A DNA stretch of 64,000 nt. It comes from Candidatus Lloydbacteria bacterium RIFCSPHIGHO2_02_FULL_50_18 (GTDB taxonomy: Bacteria; Patescibacteriota; Minisyncoccia; Phycocordibacterales; UBA6899). The notes below the pieces were generated by a model. The model was not told the origin of the DNA and made no database searches. It was given only the letters and a program-made list of their open reading frames with translations. This document shows, in pieces, positions 21,350-54,438 of the stretch. Numbering within the stretch: the first letter of the stretch is position 1; every line of letters begins with the position of its first letter. The stretch spans positions 1 to 64,000 of the forward strand of contig MHLM01000001.1 of assembly GCA_001821395.1 (NCBI GenBank), given 5' to 3'. A program made the position numbers and the translations under genes.

Positions 21350-21591
21350 ACTATTCTCCTTGTGGTGCCCCAAAGTACAAAAGGGCTAGTTACAAAGTAC
21401 TTCTTGCTTCGATTTACCATATTTTTTAAAAAAAGCAACTGGCTATTTTTTAGTATTTAATTTCCTCTCCGAATAGGAATGCTCGTCCTTTGGCCTTCAA
21501 AAAACCGTGCGACACGATCATTATGAGGTCCGTCGATTCAATGTGGTTGTCGCGTTGTTAATAAGACCCATGATTGTTATAGTTACATGAC

Positions 21592-24500
21592 ATGTTCAGA
21601 ACACGTAAAGGTCGCTCTTCGTCACGTGGGATCGAGAGTCTTGCAAAAGAGCTCACGTTGACCGCACAACTTTCTTTCGACGAACGTCGGGCTACGATCT
21701 TCGCCCAACGATCAAGAAAAACACTCATTCGTACTCGCGCTGCATATCGCGACCTGTTGCAGCATCTTAATGAACGAGTACAGGCAACTCAGGGTATCGA
21801 ACTGCTTCTGGATAATTTCTATATCATTGAGAGTGCGTTGACCGAGCTGCTCTCGAGCTGGAAGGAAAAGATGACACTTCGTGTCCCTCAATCGCAGGAC
21901 GTCGACGGGGAAAAACAGCCACGTGTATATACGATCGCGCGCGCATTAACAAAGGAGGTGGATGCAAGATTTGACCGTGAAACGATTATTGAATTTCTCA
22001 GATCCTATCAAAAGAATACTCCTCTTTCGTTGCGGGAACTTGATATTTTTCCGGATATGTTGCGATTCGTGCTCATTGAAGAGGTGCTTCGGATCATCGA
22101 TGCGAGTCTTGCGGTGCTAAAGGAAAAGGCTGATGCGAATCGTTGGTACGAGCGCATCGTTGATGCAAGTCGACACAAAAATACTTCGGCTCGCTTGAGA
22201 AAGCTTACGGGTCTTCTTGCTGCAGAATATACCATCATTCCACAAATATTCGGTTTGCATCTGCTCCACCGCTTAGATCAGGCGGGAAAGGAGGGCGATA
22301 TCCGTATGGTAAGCAAGTGGCTTAAACTTTCGCTTTCAAAACAAGGAGTAAGCTATGCTCAGCTTTCAACGCTGAAATCCCATACGGAAAAAGTGCAGGC
22401 AGCCACGATGAGAAATGCGGTGACGAGTCTTCGTTATCTGTCTCAAGTACGATGGGATAAGGTCTCTCTGGAATTGAATATGGTCGATGCTGTCCTCTCC
22501 AAAGATCCTGTTGGCGCATTCGCGATGCTCACTGATGACGCGCGCTCTTTGTATCGCAGGACCATTGCGCGTATTAGTGACGGGACGGGAACACACGACA
22601 TCGAGGTCGCACGTGAAGCAGTACGTCTTGCGCGACAAGCAGTCGAAGTGGGAAATGACAAGACCATGCGTTCGCATCATGTGGGATATTATCTGCTTGA
22701 TAAGGGCGTCTTGGAGCTTGAACAGATGCTTGGATACGTACCGACATTCATGGAGAGTGTGCGCATGATCGTCTTGAAGCACAATACGAATGCGTACCTC
22801 GGATTCATTTGTGTTGTCACGCTTCTCTCGACCGGTGTATTTCTTGCACAGAGTGGCGCGTTCGCGTTCTCCGCACTTCTTTTTTTTGCGATGTTCATGC
22901 TGGGACTACTGTTGATGTCAGAAGTGGCAACGGTATTCGCTCACTTTATGTTTACAAGGATACTTATTCCGAAACAATTGCCCGCACTCGATCTTGCGCT
23001 CGGTATTGGTGACGCTCGTCGAACGGTGGTTGTCGTGCCTTCGATGTTTCGGAGTGCCGCCTCTGCACAGAAGATACTTCGAAGAATGGAGACGAATTTT
23101 GTGGGGAATAGTGACACAAATATTTTTTATGCTTTTTTGATGGATTTCCGTGATGCGAAGTCTGAAGAAGTGCCGCAAGACAACAAGCGTGTCACCGAGA
23201 TGAGGGAGGGGATCATGCTGCTCAATGCAAAGTATCCGTCAGCCATACCTCGTTTTGCATTGTTCTATCGCAAACGAAAATGGAATACCGCCGAAGGTAC
23301 ATTTATGGGCTGGGAAAGGAAGCGTGGGAAACTCAAGGAATTCAATGATCTATTGCGTGGTAAGGAAACATCGTACATCGATGACGCACAAAAGTGTGCA
23401 GCAGCTTATGGAACCGTCCGTTACGTGATCACGCTCGACGAAGACACGGAGCTCGTAAGAGATTCAGCGCGATCGCTTATTGGAACGATCGACCATCCGC
23501 TCAATCGCCCCGTAGTAGATCCGGTCAAAATGGTCGTTACAGAGGGCTATGGAATTGTTCAACCGCGAAGCGCTTTAAGATTCGAGGAAGGAGGAGCATC
23601 ACTCTTTTCTCGATTATTTGGCAGTTACCCGGGTATTGAGTCCTACTCATCGTTTGTTTCTGACCTGCATCAGGACCTGTTCGGAGAGGGTATATTTCAC
23701 GGAAAAGGTATTTACGATATCGATGCGTTTAATACAACGATGTCGGAACGTATCCCGGAGAACACCGTGCTTTCGCATGACCTGCTCGAAGGCTTGTACG
23801 CTCGAGTCGGCATCGCAAGTAGTGCGCACATTTTTGAGGGTTTTCCGTCAAATTATCGGGAGTATATACAGCGGTCTCATCGCTGGATACGTGGAGACTG
23901 GCAGATTATTACATGGCTATTTGACCGTGGTGCGGTATTTTCACGGATCGGTCGATATCGTATCTTTGATAATCTTCGACGGAGTTTGATCCCCATAGCC
24001 GCAGTGCTTGCGGTGATCTTTTCTTTATTTTCTGCGGCGGAGCTATCATCGTGGAGCATTGTCGCACTGCTTGCGATCGGTTCGGGTCAATTGATATCCG
24101 CAGTATTGCGCATCACCGAACGAACTACGAATTGGAAACGGCCGGTAAGTATCGTCGCGAGATTCGAATCAATGATCACTAGCTCGGTTGTGGCGCTCGT
24201 TAAAACATTATTTCTTGGCGCATTCGCACTCCATAGCGCAATGATCACTATTGATGCGATCGTGAGAAGTATGTGGCGACTCTTTTTTTCAAAAAGGCAT
24301 CTTCTTGAGTGGCAGACCGCATATGAAGCAGCTCTTGAGCGGAAAGATTCGATCAAGGGCTTCATACGATTCATGTGGCGCAGTGTGTGCCTCTCTCTCG
24401 CGCTCGTTTATCTCTTGTTCCACGGTGGAGGCATACAGGACCCCGTCGTGGTCATGTGGGTTCTTGCATGGCTCTTTGCTCCGTATTGCGCGGCGAGGAT

Positions 24501-27500
24501 CAGTGCAGAGCTGAAGAACAGGTATGTGCTTTCGGATACCGAACGTTTATATCTGCGTAAGGTTGCAGCACGGACATACTGGTTCTTTATTGACCTTGCA
24601 ACAAAGGAAGATAGCTGGCTTGTGCCGGATCATCTTCAGGAAGAACCACCAAGTAAGCGCCATTCCCATGGGCTCGGTATCTCCCCGACAAATCTTGGTA
24701 TGTACCTTTTGTCACTTTCGGGAGGACGAGCATTGGGACTCTCGTCGCTTTCAGCATACACAGATCGGATAACGCGCGCCTTTGCAAGTATGGAACGCAT
24801 GGTGCGTTACAACGGGCATTTTTATAATTGGTATGAACTGAAGCAGCTCACACCGCTTGCTCCCCGCTACGTATCAAGTGTTGATAGTGCAAATCTTGCA
24901 TTGTCACTACTCGCAGTGAAGGGTGCCCTCATTGATGCCACCGATGCACCGATTATTAGCGATGCCATGTTTCAAGGGCTCGATGCGCAACTCCACGTAC
25001 TCCTCGAGTCATGCGAACAAGCGATCACAATCAAGACGTCCGAACGTCACGAACGAAAATTACTTGGGGAGATCAGGTCGGCTGCTACAGAATCGATCAT
25101 GCTGATCCAGAAAGTGGCGAACGAAGCATTGACGCCTCGAGGAAGTGATCTTGTTTGGACTGGGGTCATTCATCATGCGGTACGTACGAGGAATGCACTC
25201 GAGGAATTGCGTCTCGAGGGGAAAAGCGAGCGTTTTGAGGAAATATTCCTCGCTGCGAGACATATTGAATCTGTCGCTGATGCCTATCGGGATAATGTTG
25301 CGCGATATCTCGGACACGCGGTCATTTCTGCGGTTTCCGCTTTAGCTCATGACCCCAAGCTTCATGCGCTGTATCTCCAGCTTTCGTTACTGTTGCAGCG
25401 GATACCAAGTGTGAATGATCTTGCTGATGGAGTAGTTCGGCGGGAGATCGAATCAGTCGGAATTCTTGATGCGGTTCTGCTTTCTCAGCTTGAAACAGAA
25501 GAAAAAAAGCGAGTTCGTGCGTGGTACGCACAGATCTTAGAAAGACTTGCCGAATCTGAAAAAAGAGCATCCGAGGCGCAGTCTTCATTGATCGGGTCTG
25601 CAAAGAGCGCGGCTGCTTATGTAGAGGAAATGAATTTTGAATTTCTTTATAATAAAGAGCGCGGTCTATTCCATATCGGATATAATTGCTCTACCGAAAA
25701 ACTCGATGAAGCATTTTATGATCTGCTCGCTTCAGAAGCGAATTCGACAAGTATCATCGGAATTGCTAAGCGTGATGTCCCTCAGGCACATTGGGCATAT
25801 CTCGGCAGAAAGTTGATCCAGAGCGGGAACGGCGACGTACTCGTTGCTTCATGGGCGGGATCGTTATTTGAGTATTTGGGAACGCTATTGTATTTCAACG
25901 TCCCGAGGGAAAGTTTTTGGGGTGTCTCTGCTCAGCGGGCTATTGCGGCACATCAGGCTTTTGCGCAGAAATATCATATACCGTGGGGGATGGGTGAGTC
26001 TGCCTCTTCGCGGCAAGATGTTGCACGGAATTATCATTACCAAGCATTCGGAGAACCATCCCTTGGTTTTAAGCGTGATCTTTCCGAATCGATCGTTGTC
26101 GCTCCGTATACAAGTGCTCTCGCACTTTCGATGGCACCAAAAGAAGCACTCGCAAATTTTCAACAGCTTGAGCGCGCCGGGGCATTTGGTCGCTACGGTT
26201 TCTATGATGCGATTGATTTTACGAAGAAAAGGGCAAAAGAATACCGTGAATCTTCGGGGGTACCTGCACGAATATATTATGCGCATCATCAGGGATTCAT
26301 ACTTTCATCGATCATCAATGTGCTCAATGATGGTTGGGTTCGTACGATGGTTGCTAAGGATCCTCAAATGGAAGTGTCAACACAGTTGTTTGAGGAGAAG
26401 ATGCCGGAAGACGTTCGCGGTGAGAAGATCAGCCCTATCGTCCCCGAAATACCTGTTGCTCAAACAGTATCAACGTTTGCAGCATCTCCTCGTCGGTATC
26501 TTCCGTGGCGTACCAAAGAAGCAACCTCAATGTTTCTTTCAAATGAAGATTATTTTACCCGAATCACCGCGACGGGTGCCGGAGAGAGCTCCATCGGCGA
26601 TGTATTGATCACTCGAGCATCAAGCGATATGTTGCGCGAGTCTGTCGGCACCTTCTTCTATGTCTTTGATGCGGCACGAGACAAGATGTGGTCACCAACG
26701 TACATGCCGACGCGAGTCGCGGGTGATAAGCATACTGTTTCCTTCGGTGAACAGATCATTCAATTCAAGAAAACGCATGAGGAGATCGACTCATCGTTGA
26801 TCGTGACCCCCCTTATTCAAGATCATGGAGAGTTGCGCGAGCTTTCACTTACCAACACAAGAGAAAAAGAGACCGTGCTTACCTTCGGAGTATGCGCAGA
26901 ACTGTCACTTTCGCGAAGACAGGATGAATCATCACACCCGAACTATGAGCAGCTCTTCGTTTCTACTGAAACGCATTGGGGGGGGCGTGCCATCATTGCT
27001 TCGCGCCCCGACCCGCATGATCGTAATCACCATATTGTAGCCGGTTTTCTTCTCGTCGGAGACGGTATGCTTGATGACGTACATGCGATAAGAGAGAAAA
27101 GCCTTTTCTTGGGTTCCCCGGAGCAAAAAGATGATCCGCCAATATTGCGTGACCTCTCACGTGCGAACAAGGAGGGTCCTGCTCACACGCTCGACAGTGT
27201 CGCCGCATTCGTCGGTCGTGTTCGATTGCGGCCGAAAGCAACCACCCGTGTCACATTGGTGACAATCGTAGGGAAGTCAAAAGAAGAGGTATTTGCACGT
27301 CTAAAGATCTATCGCAATTACAAGTCTGTACTGGGTGTCATAGGTGGCGCCGACCGTGCAGGGGGGCAACTGCTGAGCGAGCTCAGCATCACGGCACTTC
27401 AGGCTGAAGCCTACGGTACCCTGGCTTCAATTGCTATCGCTCGTGAAGTAAAAAGCGGAAAGGAATCAAACTCCAATGCTCGTCCTTGGGTCTCAGCTCT

Positions 27501-30363
27501 TTGGAAAATGAGCATATCAGGAAGTCGTCCTATCATTTTGTGCCCGGTGACGGGAGCAACGGATATTCCTATGGTACGACAGCTACTTAGCTGCCATTCG
27601 TATTTCGTCAAAAAAGGCATCGTGGTCGACCTCGTGATCTTTAATGAACATTCCGGCGGATATCTGAAGACCTTTGAAGATGAAATAGACTTTTTACTTA
27701 ATATGCATCACGCGCAGAATGGAAATACTCTATCTACGGTATTTCACGTGCATGCAGAGCAATTAAGTGACCTTGAGCAAGATGCCGTCATGAGTGCGGC
27801 AAGCGTGTGCATAGACACGAAAAAGGGTTCGATCGTGGATGCAACCGTTTCATTGCGACGAAGCGCGACGCGAAAATATCCCCAGAAACTCAGCATACGA
27901 TCCAAGCGCACCGAGAGTATTCCCACACAGCCGCAACAGGGGAATACAAACGCCTTGCAGTTCTTTAACGGGATCGGTGGTTATGATGAAGCAAAAAAGG
28001 AGTATGTTGTCTTCCGCACGAAAGAAACACGCCCGGTTCGCCCGTGGTCGCACATTGTTGCAAACGCGCATGTCGGTTTTCTTGCGACCGACAGGGGGAC
28101 ATCTTTTACGTGGTCACGAAATAGTTACGATAACAAACTGACCATACCGTATAATGACCCTCTTTCTGCGCATACCGGCGAAGCGATATATCTCCGAGAT
28201 GAGGACACTGGCGCATGGATCAGTCCGTTCCCGGTCGTGAACAAAGAGGCGCTCGACTGTGAGGTGCGCTTTGGTGAAGGGTATTGCACGTATATTACAC
28301 ATGCACCCGGCATCACGATCAACATGACCATGTATGTGGGGGTAGACGAATCAGTTAAATATTACCGCGTTGAAATGACCAATACGAGCAAGCGTCAGAA
28401 GTCATTTGCGCTTTTTGGATATTTCGAACTGTTAATGGGAAGTCTTGAACGGGAAACAAAAAAACATCTTTCTTTCCGCGTCACCCCAGAAAATATTTTG
28501 GTGGCAACACAAAACTATCGTCATCAATTTTTGGACAGCAGGATCTTTGTCGGGATCGTGGGGGGCGCAGATGAATTTACCGTCAGTCGGGAGGAATTTC
28601 TGGGAAGATATGGAATGATCAGTGCGCCTGCAGCGCTGACACGAAAGGGGCTTTCAAGTGAGATCCATGGTGACGAAGAATCAGCTACTGCGCTGAAGAA
28701 AGATATCACGATTGCTCCGGGGGAACAAAAGGTGGAAGTATTCTTTCTGGGAGAGACGGATGAGGAGAAGCTGCCGAACCTGCTCCAGCGATTACAGGAT
28801 TCCAGTCACTCCGAACAAGCATTCACGATGACGAAACAAAAGTGGAACGCACTTCCATTACCGAAATTCACGCTACCGGACGCGACACTTTCTGCGCTTG
28901 CCAATCAGTTTCTTCCATACCAAACACTTTCCTCGCGTATCTATGCACGGCTTGGATTCTACCAAATTGGCGGTGCGATCGGCTTTCGCGATCAGTTGCA
29001 GGATGCGCTATCGATACTCTGGTATGATCCATCGTGGGTACGTGAGCACATTCTCGTTTCTGCCGCGCATCAGTTCCGAGAGGGTGACGTGCTTTCGTGG
29101 TGGCAGCCGCATAATAATTTCGGTGCTCGGACGCGACTTTCCGACCCGCATCTTTGGTTGCCGCATGTCACACTTCGCTATGTGCGATTTACCGGCGACG
29201 AAGCGATCCTCGACGAAATGGTGCCATATTTGTCAGGAGAAATTCCCGATAAAGCTGATCGACCGAATGTCGTGGGTATTTTTGAGTCCAGCAACGAAGC
29301 AACCACGCTTTATGAGCACCTGATACGTGCAGTCGAGCGTTCACTGACCGCAGGAGTCCACGGATTGCCGCTCATGTGCGCAGCAGACTGGAATGATGGG
29401 ATGAACCGGGTTGGCTCAGAGGGTGAAGGAGAGAGCGTGTGGCTTGCGTGGTTTCTCGTTTCCGTGCTCGATGAGATGAGCCTACTTACTGAAAAGCGCG
29501 GTGACCCATCGCGCGCAGAGCGTTACCGCGCTCACTCAAGAGGCTATCGGGACGCATTGAAAAAATTTGGGTGGGGTGGAAAATGGTATCGACGAGCGTA
29601 CACCGACAGCGGTGCAATGGTTGGAGCGAGCAGCGCAAAGGAGTCCCGCCTTGATTCAATAACGCAGTCGTGGGCATATTTTGCAGACGGAGATACCAAA
29701 GAAAGCAGAGAAGCATTGCGCTCCGCAAAACAGGAGCTCTCTATACATGATGGCCATGTGCCTCTTTTTTGGCCTCCATCCTCGCGGGCCGTCCTCGACT
29801 TGGGCACTGTTTCAGACTACCCACCCGGCGTGCGGGAGAACGCCGCGCAGTATAATCATGCTGCTCTTTGGCTTGCACAAGCACTTTTTGCCTCAGGAGA
29901 CCCCGATGCGGGAATGATGGTTGTTGATGCGGTGAATCCGTTCAAGCGAAGTGAGACAAAAGAAAAAGCGCTGGTTTATCAGGGAGAACCTTACGTGGTT
30001 GCCGCTGAAGTGTATTCTTCCCCCACGTACCCCGGACAAGCTGGTTGGACCTGGTATACCGCATCTGCAGGGGTGCTTTACCGTACGATACTAGAATATA
30101 TGCTCGGTGTGAAACACGAAGGAAACACACTGACATTCTCCCCGTCATTCCCAACGTCGTGGCACAACGCTTCGTTGGCATTACCGTACGGTGGGTCACT
30201 CTATAGCATAACATTTGAGGTGAAGGGTAGAGATGCGCCCAAGGAAGTTCTCGTTGACGGAATTCATGTGAAAAACAACGCGGTTACGCTTGTCGATGAT
30301 AAGACAGCGCATAAGGTCCATGTTTCTTTTGGAAGGACCTCGGGGAAAGACTCGTCGTCATAG
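21592..30363 (+). CDS. cgs: Cyclic beta-1,2-glucan synthase (Cgs/NdvB/ChvB-type): membrane GT84 glycosyltransferase domain plus C-terminal GH94 glucan phosphorylase-like domain, 2923 aa
   Basis: TM-flanked GT domain containing YVITLDEDTEL...QRSHRWIRGDWQII (D-x-D and QxxRW-like motifs), and a large C-terminal alpha-barrel region with CAADWNDGMNRVG (GH94 catalytic signature). Length and architecture match cyclic glucan synthases. Confidence 0.88.
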   Translation: MFRTRKGRSSSRGIESLAKELTLTAQLSFDERRATIFAQRSRKTLIRTRAAYRDLLQHLNERVQATQGIELLLDNFYIIESALTELLSSWKEKMTLRVPQSQDVDGEKQPRVYTIARALTKEVDARFDRETIIEFLRSYQKNTPLSLRELDIFPDMLRFVLIEEVLRIIDASLAVLKEKADANRWYERIVDASRHKNTSARLRKLTGLLAAEYTIIPQIFGLHLLHRLDQAGKEGDIRMVSKWLKLSLSKQGVSYAQLSTLKSHTEKVQAATMRNAVTSLRYLSQVRWDKVSLELNMVDAVLSKDPVGAFAMLTDDARSLYRRTIARISDGTGTHDIEVAREAVRLARQAVEVGNDKTMRSHHVGYYLLDKGVLELEQMLGYVPTFMESVRMIVLKHNTNAYLGFICVVTLLSTGVFLAQSGAFAFSALLFFAMFMLGLLLMSEVATVFAHFMFTRILIPKQLPALDLALGIGDARRTVVVVPSMFRSAASAQKILRRMETNFVGNSDTNIFYAFLMDFRDAKSEEVPQDNKRVTEMREGIMLLNAKYPSAIPRFALFYRKRKWNTAEGTFMGWERKRGKLKEFNDLLRGKETSYIDDAQKCAAAYGTVRYVITLDEDTELVRDSARSLIGTIDHPLNRPVVDPVKMVVTEGYGIVQPRSALRFEEGGASLFSRLFGSYPGIESYSSFVSDLHQDLFGEGIFHGKGIYDIDAFNTTMSERIPENTVLSHDLLEGLYARVGIASSAHIFEGFPSNYREYIQRSHRWIRGDWQIITWLFDRGAVFSRIGRYRIFDNLRRSLIPIAAVLAVIFSLFSAAELSSWSIVALLAIGSGQLISAVLRITERTTNWKRPVSIVARFESMITSSVVALVKTLFLGAFALHSAMITIDAIVRSMWRLFFSKRHLLEWQTAYEAALERKDSIKGFIRFMWRSVCLSLALVYLLFHGGGIQDPVVVMWVLAWLFAPYCAARISAELKNRYVLSDTERLYLRKVAARTYWFFIDLATKEDSWLVPDHLQEEPPSKRHSHGLGISPTNLGMYLLSLSGGRALGLSSLSAYTDRITRAFASMERMVRYNGHFYNWYELKQLTPLAPRYVSSVDSANLALSLLAVKGALIDATDAPIISDAMFQGLDAQLHVLLESCEQAITIKTSERHERKLLGEIRSAATESIMLIQKVANEALTPRGSDLVWTGVIHHAVRTRNALEELRLEGKSERFEEIFLAARHIESVADAYRDNVARYLGHAVISAVSALAHDPKLHALYLQLSLLLQRIPSVNDLADGVVRREIESVGILDAVLLSQLETEEKKRVRAWYAQILERLAESEKRASEAQSSLIGSAKSAAAYVEEMNFEFLYNKERGLFHIGYNCSTEKLDEAFYDLLASEANSTSIIGIAKRDVPQAHWAYLGRKLIQSGNGDVLVASWAGSLFEYLGTLLYFNVPRESFWGVSAQRAIAAHQAFAQKYHIPWGMGESASSRQDVARNYHYQAFGEPSLGFKRDLSESIVVAPYTSALALSMAPKEALANFQQLERAGAFGRYGFYDAIDFTKKRAKEYRESSGVPARIYYAHHQGFILSSIINVLNDGWVRTMVAKDPQMEVSTQLFEEKMPEDVRGEKISPIVPEIPVAQTVSTFAASPRRYLPWRTKEATSMFLSNEDYFTRITATGAGESSIGDVLITRASSDMLRESVGTFFYVFDAARDKMWSPTYMPTRVAGDKHTVSFGEQIIQFKKTHEEIDSSLIVTPLIQDHGELRELSLTNTREKETVLTFGVCAELSLSRRQDESSHPNYEQLFVSTETHWGGRAIIASRPDPHDRNHHIVAGFLLVGDGMLDDVHAIREKSLFLGSPEQKDDPPILRDLSRANKEGPAHTLDSVAAFVGRVRLRPKATTRVTLVTIVGKSKEEVFARLKIYRNYKSVLGVIGGADRAGGQLLSELSITALQAEAYGTLASIAIAREVKSGKESNSNARPWVSALWKMSISGSRPIILCPVTGATDIPMVRQLLSCHSYFVKKGIVVDLVIFNEHSGGYLKTFEDEIDFLLNMHHAQNGNTLSTVFHVHAEQLSDLEQDAVMSAASVCIDTKKGSIVDATVSLRRSATRKYPQKLSIRSKRTESIPTQPQQGNTNALQFFNGIGGYDEAKKEYVVFRTKETRPVRPWSHIVANAHVGFLATDRGTSFTWSRNSYDNKLTIPYNDPLSAHTGEAIYLRDEDTGAWISPFPVVNKEALDCEVRFGEGYCTYITHAPGITINMTMYVGVDESVKYYRVEMTNTSKRQKSFALFGYFELLMGSLERETKKHLSFRVTPENILVATQNYRHQFLDSRIFVGIVGGADEFTVSREEFLGRYGMISAPAALTRKGLSSEIHGDEESATALKKDITIAPGEQKVEVFFLGETDEEKLPNLLQRLQDSSHSEQAFTMTKQKWNALPLPKFTLPDATLSALANQFLPYQTLSSRIYARLGFYQIGGAIGFRDQLQDALSILWYDPSWVREHILVSAAHQFREGDVLSWWQPHNNFGARTRLSDPHLWLPHVTLRYVRFTGDEAILDEMVPYLSGEIPDKADRPNVVGIFESSNEATTLYEHLIRAVERSLTAGVHGLPLMCAADWNDGMNRVGSEGEGESVWLAWFLVSVLDEMSLLTEKRGDPSRAERYRAHSRGYRDALKKFGWGGKWYRRAYTDSGAMVGASSAKESRLDSITQSWAYFADGDTKESREALRSAKQELSIHDGHVPLFWPPSSRAVLDLGTVSDYPPGVRENAAQYNHAALWLAQALFASGDPDAGMMVVDAVNPFKRSETKEKALVYQGEPYVVAAEVYSSPTYPGQAGWTWYTASAGVLYRTILEYMLGVKHEGNTLTFSPSFPTSWHNASLALPYGGSLYSITFEVKGRDAPKEVLVDGIHVKNNAVTLVDDKTAHKVHVSFGRTSGKDSSS

Positions 30364-36552: not shown

Positions 36553-37779
36553 ATGTTTGATGTGATGAGCGCGTTTTTCGATAAGCCTTTTTTCCATCTC
36601 TTGGGGCAGATGTATGACATTGCTGCAGTTTTGGCATTCATATGGGGGCCGCTCGTTGCTGTTTGGCTCGCGCAAAAACTTTGGCTTGATTATGTTCGAC
36701 TGGATTTCATTCGAAAGAATTACGAATTCATTCTTCTTGAGATCAAGCTGCCGCGTACGATCGACAAAACCCCAATGGCGATGGAACTCGTACTACAGGC
36801 GCTCCATCAGGGTGGTACGTACAATTGGTACGACAAATGGTGGCTCGGAAAAGTAAGACCATGGTTTTCTCTCGAGATCGTTTCGATCGAGGGGGAAGTA
36901 AGGCTCTTGGTGCGCACACCCTCAAAATTCAAAAAATTGATCGAGAGTCATATCTATGCGCAATATCCGGATATTGAGGTCGTTGAGGTGCAGGACTACA
37001 TTTCGCTTGCACCGTATCTTCATGAAAAGAACGAGTGGAGTATGTGGGGCTGTGAGTTTGCGTTGACGAAACCCGACCCTTATCCGATAAAGACCTATGT
37101 TGATTACGGGCTCGATAAGGCCGGAACAAAAGAAGAATTTAAGAGTGATCCGATTACCTCAATGATCGAATTTCTCGGTAGCATTGGACGAGGTCAGCAG
37201 ATCTGGATGCAGATACTCGTACAGGCAAACGGTGATCGATATGCAACGCCGGGAAAATGGTTCAAGAAGCACAATTGGAAAGAGGAGGGGGGGAGACTCA
37301 TCAAGGAGTTGCAGGCAAAATATTCCGGCATCGATGGTGCGAAACCCTCAAAGTCGGAACAGGAAGCGATAGCGGCCATTGAGCGCTCACTGTCAAAGAT
37401 AGGATTCGATTGCGGAATTCGCACTATCTATATTGCGCAGAAGGAACATTTTGACCCATCAAACATTGCGGGGATTACCGGTGCATTTCGACAATATAGT
37501 TCTCCGACCTTGAATGGCTTCAGGCCGAGTAACACTCCCGGATTTAGCTATCCGTGGCAAGATATCAATGAATGGCGGGAATCGAAGCAGAAAAGAAAAT
37601 TATTCGACGCATACGTTCGTCGCTCGTACTTTTACGCTCCATACAAGAAGACGCCGTTCGTGCTCAATGCTGAGGAGCTCGCAACGATCTATCACTTCCC
37701 CGGTGGTGTCGCGGAGACACCGACATTCTCGCGCGTCGAATCAAGAAAGGGTGAACCCCCGTCTAATCTCCCTATATAA
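36553..37779 (+). CDS. Conserved hypothetical membrane-anchored protein (N-terminal TM, ~360-aa soluble domain ending ..EELATIYHFPGG)
   Basis: Clean 408-aa ORF 4 nt upstream of mltG. No Walker motifs and no family recognised. Confidence 0.7.
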   Translation: MFDVMSAFFDKPFFHLLGQMYDIAAVLAFIWGPLVAVWLAQKLWLDYVRLDFIRKNYEFILLEIKLPRTIDKTPMAMELVLQALHQGGTYNWYDKWWLGKVRPWFSLEIVSIEGEVRLLVRTPSKFKKLIESHIYAQYPDIEVVEVQDYISLAPYLHEKNEWSMWGCEFALTKPDPYPIKTYVDYGLDKAGTKEEFKSDPITSMIEFLGSIGRGQQIWMQILVQANGDRYATPGKWFKKHNWKEEGGRLIKELQAKYSGIDGAKPSKSEQEAIAAIERSLSKIGFDCGIRTIYIAQKEHFDPSNIAGITGAFRQYSSPTLNGFRPSNTPGFSYPWQDINEWRESKQKRKLFDAYVRRSYFYAPYKKTPFVLNAEELATIYHFPGGVAETPTFSRVESRKGEPPSNLPI

Positions 37780-49153: not shown

Positions 49154-49239
49154 CGTTTACGGTTTTACCTATCATTTCCGGCAAAGAAAAATTGTCGGGT
49201 AAGTTGGCAACACGGACCAATCTGGTTATAATCCTATCC

Positions 49240-51090
49240 ATGCAAACTATGCTTTCGTCATCGGAGATCCGCTCTCGGTTTCTTCATTTTTTTAAACAGC
49301 GGGGTCATGCGATCATATCGAGTGCACCGCTCGTTCCGCTCAATGATCCGTCCGTGCTTTTTAATACCGCGGGAATGCAGCCATTGGTACCATATCTTTT
49401 GGGTGAGCCGCATCCGGCTGGGGTACGCATTGTCGACTCACAGAAATGTGTACGCACGGTTGATATTGATGAGATCGGAGATAATACACACGCAACTTTT
49501 TTTGAGATGCTCGGAAATTGGTCCCTCGGTGACTACTTTAAAAAAGAAGCGATCAATTGGAGCTATGAATTTCTCACCTCAAAGGAGGATGGTTTAGGAC
49601 TTGATCCGAACAGGCTTTACGTAACCGTCTTTGGTGGTAACCAGGATGCGCCGAAGGATACGGATGCGCATGCGACCTGGACGGAGCTATTTGCACGGGC
49701 CGGAATTAAGGGTGAACGCATCTACTATATGACCGCCGATGCAAGAGGCAAGGAGCCTAACTGGTGGAGCGCCGGGGATTCTGGCCCCTGCGGGCCGGAT
49801 AGTGAGATGTTCTACGACGTGACCGGAACGTTAGATCTTGGCATGACAAAAGAAGAATATATGGCCGCCGATGATAGGCAAGACATCGTCGAGATCTGGA
49901 ACGATGTCTTCATGGAATATCTGAAAAAAGACGGGAGTGTGGTAGGGAAATTGGAAAAACAAAACGTAGATACCGGAAGCGGTCTCGAGCGCGTAACAAT
50001 GGTCGCTCAGGGAAAGAACAACATCTTTGCAACGGATATGTTTTCAGATGTGATGGAATTCCTTAACGGCAGATCTCCGGAGGGAGTCATGAGAACAAAA
50101 CGTATCGTTGCCGATCATATTCGCACCGCGGTTTTCTTGATAGGGGACGGTGTCACTCCTTCAAATACGGACCAGGGCTATATTTTGCGTCGCCTTATTC
50201 GTAGGGCGGTACGCTTTGCCGACGACCTTGGTTTGGCTCAAAAAAAAGGTGAAACGCGAAGTGATCTTTCTGCCGTTGCCGACATGTTCATCAAAAAATA
50301 TTGCGACGTATATCCTGTGCTGCTCGAACATTCGCAGGCGATATTCACGGAGTTGGAAGAAGAGGAGAAGCGATTTCGTGAAACGCTCTCACGCGGGATG
50401 CGGGAATTTGAAAAGTTGGCGACAAAGGATATTTCCGGGGATGACGCGTTCACCTTATTTTCTTCGTATGGATTTCCGTTCGAGCTGACAAAAGAACTTG
50501 CCGATGAAAAGGGTGTCGTCGTCGATGAGCTCGGTTTTTCCGAGAACATGAAAAAACACCAATCGCTCTCGCGTGCAGGTTCTGAGCAAAAATTCAAAGG
50601 AGGACTTGCCGATGACTCTGTCGCAACCATTCGACTTCATACCGCTCATCACCTGCTTCTGCGCGCACTGCAGCTTGTTTTGGGCCCCGATGTGCATCAG
50701 CGCGGGTCAAATATCACTCAGGAACGCCTACGCATTGATTTCGCACACGGAACAAAGATGACTGACGAACAAAAAAAAGCAGTTGAAGATCTCGTGAATG
50801 AGAAGATTGTTGAAAACCTGCCGGTCATCAGAACCGAAATGAATCTTGGCGACGCTGAGCTGCTCGGAGCCGAACATGAGTTCGGAGCAAAATACCCTGA
50901 TCGAGTCTCAGTGTATTCCGTAGGACCAAAAGGTGCGACGCGTGAAGATCCTCAGTTTGACAAAAGATTTTCAATAGAATTCTGCGGAGGCCCACACGTG
51001 AATCGCACCGGAGAGTTGGGGAGGTTTAAAATATTAAAGGAGGAGGCCTCAAGTCAGGGCGTACGTAGAATAAAGGCAATACTCGAATAG
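49240..51090 (+). CDS. alaS: Alanyl-tRNA synthetase, compact form lacking the C-terminal C-Ala domain (~617 aa)
   Basis: N-terminal FLHFFKQRGHAIISSAPLVP..DPSVLFNTAGM, the editing-domain HxxxH (HTAHHLL) and ..CGGPHV. The ORF extends to 49192. Confidence 0.95.
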   Translation: MQTMLSSSEIRSRFLHFFKQRGHAIISSAPLVPLNDPSVLFNTAGMQPLVPYLLGEPHPAGVRIVDSQKCVRTVDIDEIGDNTHATFFEMLGNWSLGDYFKKEAINWSYEFLTSKEDGLGLDPNRLYVTVFGGNQDAPKDTDAHATWTELFARAGIKGERIYYMTADARGKEPNWWSAGDSGPCGPDSEMFYDVTGTLDLGMTKEEYMAADDRQDIVEIWNDVFMEYLKKDGSVVGKLEKQNVDTGSGLERVTMVAQGKNNIFATDMFSDVMEFLNGRSPEGVMRTKRIVADHIRTAVFLIGDGVTPSNTDQGYILRRLIRRAVRFADDLGLAQKKGETRSDLSAVADMFIKKYCDVYPVLLEHSQAIFTELEEEEKRFRETLSRGMREFEKLATKDISGDDAFTLFSSYGFPFELTKELADEKGVVVDELGFSENMKKHQSLSRAGSEQKFKGGLADDSVATIRLHTAHHLLLRALQLVLGPDVHQRGSNITQERLRIDFAHGTKMTDEQKKAVEDLVNEKIVENLPVIRTEMNLGDAELLGAEHEFGAKYPDRVSVYSVGPKGATREDPQFDKRFSIEFCGGPHVNRTGELGRFKILKEEASSQGVRRIKAILE

Positions 51091-51200
51091 AAAGTTGCGC
51101 GCGAAGCGCTTGCGTGAAGTTCATTCCCATGAACTTTTTGAGCCAGAGAGAAGAGGCAAGTAGTCAGGGTGTACGCAGAATAAAGGCCATACTCGAATAA
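51033..51200. repeat. Direct duplication (~60 nt) of the alaS 3' end downstream of an intervening hairpin
   Basis: 51033-51090 (gaggaggcctcaagtcagggcgtacgtagaataaaggcaatactcgaatag) recurs at 51143-51200 (agaagaggcaagtagtcagggtgtacgcagaataaaggccatactcgaataa). A GAAGTTCAT-tccc-ATGAACTTTTTG hairpin lies between them (51117-51145). Confidence 0.6.
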
Positions 51201-51270
51201 AAGCTAGCGAACCAAAGTCGGCGCGTGAGGTAAATACCCACAGTAGTACGAGTATTCTTTGTGTCAGGCG

Positions 51271-51285
51271 TGGTATAATTTTCTC
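51271..51285 (+). promoter_or_regulatory. Extended -10 promoter element abutting the start codon (leaderless-type)
   Basis: TGgTATAAT at 51271-51279, then 6 nt to the ATG at 51286. Confidence 0.4.
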
Positions 51286-52482
51286 ATGTCGCTATTTCGC
51301 AGTAATAACAAAAACGGGCAGCACTTCATCATTATTTTCGACATTGGAAGCGCTTCGATTGGCGGTGCATTTGTAAGTATCGATTCGACTCGCACACCCG
51401 AGATCATTTTTTCTATACGTAAAGATATCCCATTTCAGGAAAAACTGAGTTTTGAGCGTTTTTTGGCCTCGATGATAACAACGTTAAAAGAGATGTTTGA
51501 GGTCATGCAAAAGGCTGGTGGGGGAGTAAAAGTAGATCAGGCATTCTGCATCCTTGCGTCGCCTTGGTATGCCTCTCAAACAAGACTCGTGCACTACAAT
51601 CAACCGACTCCATTCTTGGTCACCGAGAAGGGTCTCTCAAAGCTCATTCAAAAAGAGATCAGGCTGTTCAGGGACTCAAAGTTGTTTGAACACGCAAGTA
51701 TCGACAATGTGCTCCCCGAGATCATGGAATCAAAAAGTATCCAGATCAAACTTAACGGATATGAAGTGAGCGATCCCTACGGCAAGCGCGCATCGGAGCT
51801 GGAGATCGCTTTGTACATCAGCATGATCCCTTCAAATATCTTTTCATCGATCAGGGGTGCCATCACGAAATTTTGGCATTTACCCGATGTGCATTTTTCA
51901 TCATTTTCTTTGACTGCTTTTGATACCATTCGCGGCATCTTCGTCGACGAATCAAGTTTTTTGTTCATGGATATCTCAGGAGAAGTGACCGACATTTCGC
52001 TTGCGAGGGACAATGTGCTGCTCGAATCCATTTCGTTCCCCGCAGGAAAGAACATGCTTATTCGCGGGATCATCAAGGGGATGCACTCGACACCGACGGC
52101 GGCGGCTTCTGAAATGAAACTTTATTTGGAGGGAAAGTCCACACACGAGCATGCGAAGCAGATCGAGGAGATCCTCAGTGCGGAAACAAAAGAATGGAGG
52201 ATATTCTTTGAAGACGCCCTTGCTCAATTCGCATCAGAATTTCCAATTCCGAGAACAATCTTTTATACTGCTGATGATGATGTCACAAAGTGGTTCGAGG
52301 GTGCGATCCGTGAGGCAAATTTTATGCGTTTTTCACAAGAGGAAGGGCAATTCTTGGTACGTTCGCTCGGCAATGCATTCTTAAGCAAGTTCATTCAAGT
52401 GCTTGAACCTGACTTTCAAGACCCATTTTTGGCGATCGAGACGATATTTGCGAATAAGGTTACTACATTATCAAAAAAATAA
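51286..52482 (+). CDS. Actin-fold (ASKHA) ATPase, FtsA/PilM/MreB-like, divergent
   Basis: Phosphate-1-like FIIIFDIGSASIGGAFV and phosphate-2/connect-like FLFMDISGEVTDISL (compare DIGGGTTD). ORF 51259 trimmed to MSLFRS. Confidence 0.7.
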   Translation: MSLFRSNNKNGQHFIIIFDIGSASIGGAFVSIDSTRTPEIIFSIRKDIPFQEKLSFERFLASMITTLKEMFEVMQKAGGGVKVDQAFCILASPWYASQTRLVHYNQPTPFLVTEKGLSKLIQKEIRLFRDSKLFEHASIDNVLPEIMESKSIQIKLNGYEVSDPYGKRASELEIALYISMIPSNIFSSIRGAITKFWHLPDVHFSSFSLTAFDTIRGIFVDESSFLFMDISGEVTDISLARDNVLLESISFPAGKNMLIRGIIKGMHSTPTAAASEMKLYLEGKSTHEHAKQIEEILSAETKEWRIFFEDALAQFASEFPIPRTIFYTADDDVTKWFEGAIREANFMRFSQEEGQFLVRSLGNAFLSKFIQVLEPDFQDPFLAIETIFANKVTTLSKK

Positions 52483-52491
52483 TTCATCAGT

Positions 52492-54096
52492 ATGGCGAAA
52501 TATTTAATTCAAGACATTATTCCTCCGGAAAAGCATACCCATAGAGGTGATGGCGATAATACAATTCATCACAAAGCCCCGGAGAAACCGCGTGCCCATA
52601 CGACACATAAGGCGGTCATGCATACTGCAACACATCCTGGAAAAAAGGAGGTCCATGAGTCGGTACATGAGGAGGAAATGCCAACTGAAAACCATGAGCC
52701 AGTGGTGGTCGAGGATCCAAAGGAGATGCTCATTGAGCAATTGAATTCTCCGGAAATCGAAGAAAGAGCGGTCGAAGATGAGGTTCCTCATTCGCAAAAT
52801 TATTTCTCGAGCGTGAAGGACACAGTAACCCCTGCTGCGACTTGGCCGTACGGGCAGAGCAGAGAAAGCACCGGGGCATACGTTCCGCCACGGTCTAGCG
52901 TGAATTTTGGCGGTGGAAGAGGGGGGTCTGGCGAGCGATCTTCTTGGAAGAGAGGGTGGATACCATGGATACTTGGCATCGCACTTGTTTCCGTTGTGTT
53001 TGTGCTCGGGATGAATTATTTTTCGGGTGCTACTGTTACCGTATTGCCAAAGCAGGACAGCATACCAATGGACCAGAAGATAACTATCCTCAAAAATCCG
53101 CTGAATAGCGAATTGCCGTACTCGGTCATGAAGGTCTTTCTGGAAGAGACGCGTGAAGTTCCCGCAACAGGAGAAAAAACGGTCACCGCGAAAGCTTCGG
53201 GGAAGATCATTGTGTACAATACGCAGACAGTTTCACAGCGTCTTATAAAGAATACGCGTTTTCAGAGTCCTGCAGGTAAGATCTATCGTATCAGCGATTC
53301 GATCAATGTTCCAAAGGCCGTTACGTTGAATGGAAAGACGACACCCGGCAGTTTGGAGGTCACCGTATATGCCGATGAAGCGGGCCCCGATTTCAATACC
53401 GAGCCGGTTGACTTCACTGTTCCCGGCCTCAAGGGGTCGCCGACGTTCACTAAGGTTTACGCACGCTCAAAAGGACCCATAACCGGAGGAGCATCCGGTA
53501 CGATAAAAAGTGTCTCTGATCTTGACCTTAAGCAGGCGAGCGATGATCTCCGCATCCAACTTGAGACAAAGCTGCGCACCAAAGCACGCGGCGATCTTGC
53601 GCCTAATCAGATAGGATATGATCGCGGTATGCTTGTGCAGCTCGAAGACGCAGCGCTCTCGAAGGCTCAATCTTCAAGCCCCGATAAGGCAGTTGTCTCC
53701 CAAACTGGGAACGCGTATTTCCTTGTATTTGATAGAACTGAATTAACACGAGCTATCGTTCGGTCTCTAATTCCAACATACAACAACGAGGAGGTCACGA
53801 TAGGTAATCTTGAGAGCCTCGAACTTGAATTAGCGGAAATGAGTGGCGCCGACCTCTGGAAGAGTGAAAAACTAGATATTGTCCTGCGGGGAACCCCTTC
53901 TCTCGATTGGAAGGTCGACGAGGTCGCGATCAAAACGCTAATACTGGGAAAACCAAAAGAGAATTTCAATGCGCTACTCTCTCAATTTCCGACAATAGAC
54001 CGTGCGAGCGCTACGATCCACCCTGTTTGGAAGCGTTCATTCCCAACGGATGAAAAGGATATCACGATCAAAGTAGTCACAGAAATGCCAAAATAG
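52492..54096 (+). CDS. Bitopic membrane protein with His-rich acidic cytoplasmic tail and large extracytoplasmic domain
   Basis: ~155-aa His/Glu/Pro-rich N-terminal region, a single TM helix (WIPWILGIALVSVVFVLGM) and a ~360-aa outside domain. Begins 10 nt after the actin-like gene. Confidence 0.7.
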   Translation: MAKYLIQDIIPPEKHTHRGDGDNTIHHKAPEKPRAHTTHKAVMHTATHPGKKEVHESVHEEEMPTENHEPVVVEDPKEMLIEQLNSPEIEERAVEDEVPHSQNYFSSVKDTVTPAATWPYGQSRESTGAYVPPRSSVNFGGGRGGSGERSSWKRGWIPWILGIALVSVVFVLGMNYFSGATVTVLPKQDSIPMDQKITILKNPLNSELPYSVMKVFLEETREVPATGEKTVTAKASGKIIVYNTQTVSQRLIKNTRFQSPAGKIYRISDSINVPKAVTLNGKTTPGSLEVTVYADEAGPDFNTEPVDFTVPGLKGSPTFTKVYARSKGPITGGASGTIKSVSDLDLKQASDDLRIQLETKLRTKARGDLAPNQIGYDRGMLVQLEDAALSKAQSSSPDKAVVSQTGNAYFLVFDRTELTRAIVRSLIPTYNNEEVTIGNLESLELELAEMSGADLWKSEKLDIVLRGTPSLDWKVDEVAIKTLILGKPKENFNALLSQFPTIDRASATIHPVWKRSFPTDEKDITIKVVTEMPK

Positions 54097-54170
54097 CAGA
54101 TGAATATTTCATTAATTTCACAAAAATAGTGAAAAAGTGTCGATTATGCACAGATTAATTGAAGCATGGG

Positions 54171-54199
54171 CTTGACCGAAGTTAGCGCCTCTGCTAGTA
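54171..54199 (+). promoter_or_regulatory. Putative sigma-70 promoter of the infA-rpmJ-rpsM... operon
   Basis: TTGACC - 17 nt - TAGTAT, about 20 nt upstream of the infA ATG. Confidence 0.45.
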
Positions 54200-54219
54200 T
54201 CTGGACACCCATTTTTGAC

Positions 54220-54438
54220 ATGAGTGACGACAAGCAAAAGGAGTCGACGATCATCGGTACGGTCATCGAAGCTCTCCCAAACACAATGTTTCGTGTCCAG
54301 ACAGAACCTGGACTTGAAGTGCTTGCGTACCTTTCCGGCAAAATGCGTATTCATCGCATAAAGGTTCTCGTAGGTGACAAGGTGTCACTCGAAGATAATC
54401 CTTATGGTGGGAAGTTGAGAATCGTTAAACGAATGTAA
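54220..54438 (+). CDS. infA: Translation initiation factor IF-1
   Basis: [15 protein letters not shown]...[17 protein letters not shown]1-like fold. ORF 54166 trimmed to MSDDKQ. Confidence 0.9.

Follow-up and report, generated by a model that had tools for sequence, protein, structure and literature searches.

An anchor-less FtsA/PilM-class actin-fold protein and a membrane partner with a Baseplate_J-like ectodomain as a candidate two-gene envelope module of Paceibacteria

We examined a window of 64 kb (the whole stretch analysed, positions 1 to 64,000 of contig MHLM01000001.1 of Candidatus Lloydbacteria bacterium RIFCSPHIGHO2_02_FULL_50_18) and focused on two adjacent genes, here called A and B, that sit between alaS (49192-51090) and infA (54166-54438). 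The pair is best explained as a two-gene, envelope-spanning module specific to Paceibacteria (Parcubacteria/OD1), made of a cytoplasmic actin-fold protein (A) and a bitopic membrane protein (B). Both open reading frames (ORFs) were open on the plus strand in the ORF listing of the window, and A and B are real genes and not chance ORFs, because the first searches recovered many homologues of each (334 for A and 485 for B). The open frame of A extends from a TTG at 51259 to 52482; we placed the start at the ATG at 51286, because the homologues are 397-398 aa long and begin with MSLF, and the upstream TTG appears an unlikely start. An earlier, sequence-only reading of this DNA had reported the two adjacent ORFs and two phosphate motifs in A, all of which proved real. 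Its 534 aa for B was also correct, while its 399 aa for A counted the stop codon (the protein has 398 aa). The gap between the stop of A and the start of B is 9 nt. The two genes are:

51286-52482, plus strand: gene A, 398 aa, predicted cytoplasmic FtsA/PilM-class actin-fold protein (from the ORF, homologues, structure model, Foldseek and profile)
52492-54096, plus strand: gene B, 534 aa, predicted bitopic membrane protein with its N-terminus inside (from the ORF, homologues and structure model)

A and B are both unnamed and belong to no Pfam or NCBIfam family. For A, no model of either database scored above threshold: the FtsA model PF14450 gave 14.2 bits against a cutoff of 31.8, and 45 members of the A family had only sub-threshold Pfam matches (Ppx-GppA in 12 out of 45, best 3.9e-6; FtsA in 8 out of 45). 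The AlphaFold2 (AF2) model of A, built from an alignment of 45 sequences, had a predicted local distance difference test score (pLDDT) of 89.9 and a predicted template modelling score of 0.89. The top Foldseek matches of A in the PDB were FtsA structures from S. aureus, T. maritima, Vibrio and E. coli (E-values 2e-21 to 1e-17, template modelling (TM) scores 0.58-0.70, alignments of 385-428 columns), followed by PilM of P. aeruginosa, M. xanthus and T. thermophilus (E-values 1e-16 to 1.6e-13, TM scores 0.53-0.61). FtsA and PilM structures alone aligned with A over the full length, and the best matches included 2ych and 5eou (PilM with a PilN peptide) and 7q6i (FtsA with FtsN 1-29). The next tier (Ppx/GppA, EutJ, ParM and MreB) was found at E-values of 4e-10 or higher and TM scores of 0.48 or lower, with Ppx/GppA structures at 0.32-0.34.

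At the sequence level, the first A alignment, compared with E. coli FtsA by hhalign, yielded only the phosphate-2 segment (probability 3.5%), and nothing aligned with HofM. Significance against PDB sequences came with a more diverse profile of 50 sequences, which matched M. xanthus PilM best (2.6e-5) and T. maritima FtsA at 7.7e-5. These profile matches, the structure matches and the 1C insertion described below thus place A, as judged from model and sequence, in the FtsA/PilM branch of the actin (ASKHA) superfamily, so that the earlier assignment to ASKHA held and was narrowed to this subclass. The relevant features of A are:

51340-51375, plus strand: phosphate-1 motif DIGSASIGGAFV, A residues 19-30
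51559-51828, plus strand: predicted SHS2-type 1C insertion, A residues ~92-181, from the AF2 model
51967-52002, plus strand: phosphate-2 motif MDISGEVTDISL, A residues 228-239
52255-52284, plus strand: adenosine-loop position TIFYTADDDV, A residues 324-333, acidic, with a strand at 324-328 and a helix at 334-343 in the model

The phosphate-1 motif aligned with DIGSTSIK of M. xanthus PilM and was well conserved among 66 diverse A members (D19 in 59, G21 in 62 and S24 in 64). The phosphate-2 motif aligned with VDIGGGTMDIAV of E. coli FtsA, and in the same set D229 was conserved in 63 members, G232 in 57, E233 in 64, T235 in 57 and D236 in 56. In the model, the 1C region follows the order strand-helix-strand-strand (96-111, 114-129, 145-156 and 168-181). 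It also holds the best-conserved motifs of the A family outside the nucleotide site, S-P-W-Y-x-S-Q-T-R (92-100) and L-N-G-Y (156-159), in which W94 was present in 65 out of 66 members and N157 and Y159 in all 66.

At the adenosine loop, A has IFYTADDDV where E. coli FtsA has the Gly-rich IVLTGGAAQ, in a register set by secondary structure, and D330 of this loop was kept in 55 out of 66 members. We had also taken E233 as evidence against nucleotide binding and dropped it: T. maritima FtsA and M. xanthus PilM are non-canonical in that loop too, and since both deviate at phosphate-2, the acidic adenosine loop is the only real oddity of A. The actin fold that the earlier description gave to A stands, but the non-canonical adenosine loop leaves the label "ATPase" unproven. 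Model and sequence suggest that A is probably a scaffold or a switch rather than a fast ATPase.

The last helix of A in the model spans residues 380-396 of 398 and the chain stops two residues later; family members range from 372 to 449 aa and share the same C-terminal end. Because there is no room past this core helix, A lacks the C-terminal linker and amphipathic membrane-targeting helix, and from the model it has no membrane anchor of its own. An exhaustive profile search recovered 4117 clusters of the A family at 50% identity with E <= 1e-3 and 1969 with E <= 1e-30, and no gene fusions were found among the top 150 matches of the A profile.

Protein B combines an N-terminal peptide, a disordered tail, one transmembrane helix and a large outer domain, according to the following features:

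52492-52536, plus strand: N-terminal linear motif MAKYLIQDIIPPEKH, B residues 1-15, proposed docking peptide (candidate docking peptide sequence MAKYLIQDIIPPEKK)
52537-52956, plus strand: predicted disordered cytoplasmic linker, B residues 16-155, acidic and His-rich in this clade
52957-53019, plus strand: predicted single transmembrane helix, B residues 156-176 (hydropathy maximum at 156, helix 157-176 in the model)
53020-54093, plus strand: predicted extracellular domain, Baseplate_J/gp47-like, B residues 177-534
53191-53439, plus strand: conserved beta-barrel core of the ectodomain, B residues 234-316

Hydropathy and the AF2 model agreed with the bitopic layout first proposed for B, with a cytoplasmic tail, one transmembrane helix and a large ectodomain. 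The transmembrane helix is the sole strongly hydrophobic segment, and the N-terminus should lie inside, given the basic residues (SWKRG) ahead of the helix and the lack of a signal peptide. Residues 1-155 were predicted to be disordered (pLDDT below 50 for most of them), with a short predicted helix at 76-84 (pLDDT in the 60s). This tail contains 12 His, 25 Asp+Glu and 18 Lys+Arg, with a net charge of -7, so its reported length of ~155 aa and its acidic, His-rich composition were confirmed here. Across 83 related loci the tail ranged from 41 to 223 aa and the His fraction from 0 to 12.5% (median 1.9%); by this comparison the His-rich acidic tail is a peculiarity of the Lloydbacteria clade and not a family trait.

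Residues 179-534 of B were modelled at pLDDT above 90. The Pfam GlxA beta-barrel scored 26.5 bits, just under its threshold of 27, and PF21110 was recorded for most B homologues. PHROGs family 6, "baseplate wedge subunit", matched 40 out of 46 B members (best 9.7e-7), and Foldseek retrieved GlxA and the baseplate wedge proteins of phages Pa193, A-1(L), phi812, Mu and XM1 (E-values 8e-7 to 1e-4). Pfam Baseplate_J itself was not matched by B. From sequence and model, the ectodomain belongs to the Baseplate_J/gp6/gp47 structural class, at least over the beta-barrel core. A likeness of B residues 343-443 (53518-53820) to RSV fusion glycoprotein F (E-value 2e-4, one PDB construct) was rejected as chance, because the duplicated-domain construct inflates significance and the per-domain i-Evalue was 0.47. 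No relatives of B were found in 2.9 million viral contigs (IMG/VR).

The extreme N-terminus of B was near-invariant in close and distant homologues, while the tail beyond it was variable. In the clade of the window it reads M-A-K-[YF]-L-I-Q-D-I-[IV]-P-P-E-K, with M1, K3, I6, D8 and I9 invariant or nearly so in alignment A2. Over 66 non-redundant loci that carry A, the pattern was K-x-x-[IL]-Q-D-I-[VI]-P-P-[ED]-[KR]-[RK] (K in 53 loci, Q in 49, D in 65, I in 58 and the two P in 48 and 38). A comparable order of hydrophobic residues, then Pro, then basic residues is found at the N-terminus of E. coli HofN, MNPPINFLPWRQQRR. Many lineages have a second motif, R-S-I-R-N-I-P-x-P, after the peptide and independently of A; the RSIRNIP element is lost in the Lloydbacteria clade. 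At the sequence level, a short invariant peptide carried by a tether that is disordered and varies between homologues is the hallmark of a docking motif. PilN and FtsN also have such an N-terminal peptide, which agrees with the earlier comparison of B with these partners.

We then looked at the distribution of the pair. A pattern scan for B relatives, with one genome per GTDB species, identified 483 species loci, and the best 80 of these came from records named Patescibacteria or left unclassified ("bacterium"). The titles among the best 80 included Lloyd-, Zambryski-, Nomura-, Kaiser- and Campbellbacteria, and two were complete chromosomes. Linkage was counted with the A and B profiles against six-frame ORFs of 83 loci: in 67 out of 83, A immediately precedes B in the same orientation, with a median gap of 34 nt (60 nt or less in 55 out of 67). 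The gene order alaS-[A]-B-infA-rpsM was almost universal and held in about 85 loci. Four further divergent A homologues were each followed directly by an ORF of 417-472 aa in the position of B, identified as B by position in the gene tables (Pfam "-"). A was never seen without B in the 67 loci and these four further contexts, and a search with the profile of the A nearest to the A-less clade described below found no A outside the alaS-B context, the four contexts inspected all being the standard locus. From these sequences, the pair is conserved class-wide in Paceibacteria. Many metagenome-assembled genome records (loci L007, L026, L028, L033 and others) with the same Paceibacteria-type alaS-A-B-infA order are titled "uncultured Candidatus Saccharibacteria bacterium" (binchicken, SRP co-assemblies). 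They interleave with Lloyd- and Kaiserbacteria in the B tree, and these titles are probably generic placeholders and not true taxonomy.

Co-conservation of the two genes held for those 67 loci but is not absolute, as one clade keeps B without A. In 15 loci with adequate upstream sequence (L003, L025, L032, L037, L040, L042, L044, L047, L056, L066, L067, L073, L074, L075 and L078), alaS abuts B and no A lies within 8 kb. These form a single Zambryskibacteria-like clade in the neighbour-joining tree of ectodomains, and the sister locus L065 has the most degenerate A (137 bits). Because the A-less loci are monophyletic and their sister has a degenerate A, the tree indicates a single loss of A. 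The B N-terminus in this clade reads M-P-K-x-I-[ED]-D-I-I-V-P-E-R-R-R-S-I-R-N-I-P-I-P-E, in which two near-invariant peptide positions are changed (Q to E/D and the first P to V). The RSIRNIPIP motif is strict there, which suggests a second, A-independent ligand.

The A-family member P0261 corresponds to AB200_00965 of Parcubacteria bacterium C7867-005 and lies in a standard alaS-A-B-infA locus. Table S1 of Nelson & Stegen 2015 (PMC4508563) lists for this genome ftsA as AB200_00145, two locus tags from ftsZ (AB200_00135), pilM as AB200_02925 and mreB as AB200_00625, and the tags given there for rpoA (AB200_00935) and dnaK (AB200_00910) fit the numbering of the A-B locus. The same source reports ftsA and ftsZ as adjacent in most of the 17 OD1 genomes analysed, and conserved neighbours for more than half of the OD1 core genes; the pair itself (AB200_00960/00965) is absent from the text of its core-gene table (PMC4508563). 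Because AB200_00965 coexists with a separate ftsA and pilM, A is a third FtsA/PilM-class paralogue, neither the FtsA nor the PilM of the lineage, as judged from sequence and the table entries in at least this one genome. The earlier reading of the pair as a candidate PilM/PilN- or FtsA-like module was supported in part.

FtsZ gave no phmmer match in the window and the 83 related loci (~1.3 Mb), and the sole match of E. coli FtsA in the same loci was marginal (E-value 0.008) and fell on gene A itself in L001 and L002. Gene annotations across the 64-kb window likewise contained no pilus, FtsZ (fts) or contractile-system genes. The Joint Genome Institute (JGI) pipeline names a few A-family members "cell division ATPase FtsA", such as P0244 and P0252 (L087, 6001-7188), although these lie in the alaS-A-B-infA locus. 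The label is probably wrong, and the error is likely a systematic one for this paralogue in metagenomes of the candidate phyla radiation (CPR). In the literature, we found no description of the pair or of baseplate-like or actin-like proteins in the CPR.

We compared the pair with known systems. It shares with PilM-PilN (2ych, 5eou) an anchor-less FtsA-like actin-fold protein encoded directly 5' of a bitopic protein with its N-terminus inside, and a short conserved hydrophobic-Pro-basic peptide at the extreme N-terminus of the partner. In contrast to PilM-PilN, A and B have no Pfam PilM_2 or PilN match, and B places a disordered linker of 41-223 aa before its transmembrane helix, which in PilN comes close behind the peptide, and has a Baseplate_J-like ectodomain of ~355 aa instead of a small periplasmic domain. 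A separate pilM is also listed for the same genome (C7867-005), and no pilO, pilB, pilC or pilT was detected in the window or in the related-locus gene tables examined; two pilin-like (N_methyl) genes are found ~6-10 kb upstream of A in L001 and L002.

FtsA structures (7q6i, 1e4g, 3wt0) were the best matches of A, including the 1C domain in place of 1B, and FtsA also binds the cytoplasmic N-terminal peptide of bitopic FtsN. Unlike FtsA, A lacks the C-terminal amphipathic helix, falls below the Pfam threshold for FtsA with no NCBIfam match, and has the acidic adenosine loop. It was never found beside ftsZ or in the division and cell wall (dcw) cluster in any locus, always lying between alaS and B or infA, while the canonical ftsA is near ftsZ elsewhere in the C7867-005 genome according to the published table.

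The ectodomain of B is homologous in core fold and sequence to the wedge proteins of the Baseplate_J/gp47 (Mu)/gp6 (T4)/TssF class and to the GlxA barrel (PF21110), and not PilN-, FtsN- or FtsQ-like in fold. Unlike baseplate wedge proteins, B is chromosomal, in a housekeeping context, with a transmembrane anchor and a cytoplasmic tail, and no other contractile-system genes lie near it. RodZ with MreB and MapZ (LocZ) with FtsZ have the same layout as B, with a conserved N-terminal cytoplasmic element, a long disordered linker, a transmembrane helix and an outer domain, and a similar logic, an inner cytoskeletal protein coupled to a wall-facing outer domain. They are not known to be related to B in sequence or fold, and their cytoskeletal partners belong to different families; RodZ docks by a helix-turn-helix domain and not by a peptide.

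The reading that we prefer, with a probability of about one half, is a PilM/PilN-like tether in which the N-terminal peptide of B docks A at the membrane. Precedents are the INLLP peptide of PilN, which docks on PilM, and the N-terminus of FtsN, which docks on FtsA. The peptide of B would dock probably at the conserved 1A/1C region of A, with the SPWYxSQTR and LNGY motifs of 1C as candidate contact sites, and this would hold A, or oligomers of A, under the membrane. A would be coupled in this way to a scaffold that the ectodomains of B build as oligomers in the wall zone; like wedge proteins, these Baseplate_J-like domains may assemble with one another outside the membrane. The process served could be growth of the envelope, a structure for attachment or at the surface, or an accessory role in division. 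The tether is favoured by the FtsA/PilM fold of A, by the PilM:PilN and FtsA:FtsN complexes among its best structure matches and by the close A-B linkage, and also because the peptide resembles that of HofN in pattern, because it is kept while the tail that follows varies from 41 to 223 aa, and because the Q and the first P of the peptide change in the clade that lacks A.

Other observations count against a tether between B and A. The order alaS-A-B-infA-rpsM and onwards is frozen class-wide, with housekeeping neighbours equally syntenic, and since the order of the whole region is frozen, adjacency alone is weak evidence of a functional link; neighbouring genes point to no process. The 15 loci in which alaS abuts B weigh in the same direction: because this clade keeps B and a conserved peptide with no A in the locus, B does not need a neighbouring A to work and something else may bind the peptide, and the peptide change in the clade is a single evolutionary event. 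B might accordingly be read as an autonomous core, a scaffold or receptor of the wall zone whose peptide or peptides recruit another partner (canonical FtsA, PilM or FtsZ), with A as a dispensable accessory or regulator. The strongly conserved B N-terminus of the A-less clade, the RSIRNIPxP motif conserved in many lineages independently of A and the degenerate A (137 bits) of the sister lineage L065 all agree with this proposal. We consider it somewhat unlikely: every A seen, in 67 loci and four contexts, was accompanied by B, A is more conserved than B (59% against 36% mean column identity), and its family is large (4117 clusters) and therefore under strong selection wherever present; A might also still be encoded elsewhere in the A-less genomes.

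Frozen synteny also bears on whether the two proteins are related at all. A could be a metabolic ASKHA enzyme, such as a Ppx/GppA-like phosphatase or a kinase, unrelated to B and adjacent to it only through the conserved gene order of streamlined CPR genomes. The sub-threshold Ppx-GppA matches in 12 out of 45 members (best 3.9e-6) and the presence of this family among the PDB profile matches speak for it, as do the unrelated housekeeping genes equally conserved in order here and the share of OD1 core genes, over half, reported with conserved neighbours (PMC4508563). This is very unlikely in our view, given TM scores of 0.32-0.34 for Ppx/GppA against 0.53-0.70 for FtsA and PilM, the SHS2 1C insertion typical of the latter two, the short A-B gap (median 34 nt), and the acidic, not Gly-rich, adenosine loop, which argues against an efficient nucleotide-dependent enzyme. 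The likeness of the ectodomain to wedge proteins raises yet another origin, in which B would be left over, or domesticated, from the baseplate of a prophage or contractile injection system and the pair would be a mobile or defence-related element. We regard this as highly improbable: genes for a sheath, tube, spike or gp25-like protein are absent from the window, those related loci that were examined had housekeeping content throughout, 2.9 million viral contigs held no relative of B, the chromosomal place next to infA is fixed across the whole class, GC (guanine plus cytosine) content is uniform, and a domain outside the membrane on a transmembrane anchor is unlike any baseplate wedge.

A bolder extension of the preferred tether, which we hold to be unlikely as it stands, is a third, so far unrecognised actin-based envelope machine in Paceibacteria, in addition to those of cell division (FtsA) and type IV pili (PilM). 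Here the tethered paralogue would organise a ring or lattice of wedge-like ectodomains outside the membrane, and the outer domain of B would be an ancient repurposing of the module used by phage and contractile-injection-system baseplates. Such a machine might serve as a platform for attaching to or contacting a host, or for a lineage-specific mode of wall growth.

Downstream of B on the plus strand lie infA, rpsM, rpsK, rpsD, rpoA and rplQ. The position directly upstream of infA had been taken to suggest high, constitutive expression; because gene order is frozen along the whole region, it says little on the expression of A and B. A promoter and terminator scan gave signals at background level, and sequence inspection revealed no obvious Shine-Dalgarno sequence 5' of A or of B. 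One element was read directly from the sequence:

51271-51279, plus strand: extended -10-like TGgTATAAT, ending 6 nt before the ATG of A

It was missed by the consensus promoter scan because no -35 is present, and is a weak candidate for the promoter of an A-B transcript that would be leaderless. A direct but imperfect (80%) copy of 60 nt from the alaS 3' end (51040-51099), last codons and stop included, lies 110 nt downstream of the original, at 51150-51209 between alaS and A. It may be a rearrangement remnant or a duplicated terminator region.

The gene content of the window is housekeeping, with an ATP synthase operon, metK, leuS, a YceG/MltG gene, a Mur ligase gene, mnmA, pyrH, a sua5-family gene and grpE-dnaK-dnaJ. 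Its GC content is ~48% with uniform composition, and it looks like a Patescibacteria (CPR) chromosome. We also noted an ORF of 2,923 aa (21592-30363, plus strand) with GT2, glucoamylase-like and GH94 supersandwich and catalytic domains, the architecture of a cyclic beta-1,2-glucan synthase (Cgs/NdvB-like); such a gene would not be expected in a CPR genome of small size. Another ORF, of 408 aa (36553-37779, plus strand), had no Pfam match and lies between a gene with Sigma70_r4 and HARE-HTH domains and yceG/mltG; its syntenic counterpart in L003 (3688-4941) carries DUF8128, another conserved unknown in the frozen block. Finally, a 915-aa protein (18626-21373, minus strand) combines CoA-binding (coenzyme A), succinyl-CoA-ligase-like, ATP-grasp and GNAT domains, and from these would be one of two enzymes, an ADP-forming acetyl-CoA synthetase or a Pat-type protein acetyltransferase.

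Few bacteria are as abundant and as little understood as the Paceibacteria (Parcubacteria), and because their genomes are tiny, genes kept class-wide are likely to matter. The "FtsA" labels carried by some A members could distort inferences about cell division in the CPR. The pair combines a PilM/PilN-like design with a new FtsA/PilM paralogue and a partner ectodomain that is unprecedented for such modules, and two "hypothetical proteins" thus become a testable model in which an actin-like protein would be tethered by a peptide to a trans-envelope scaffold.

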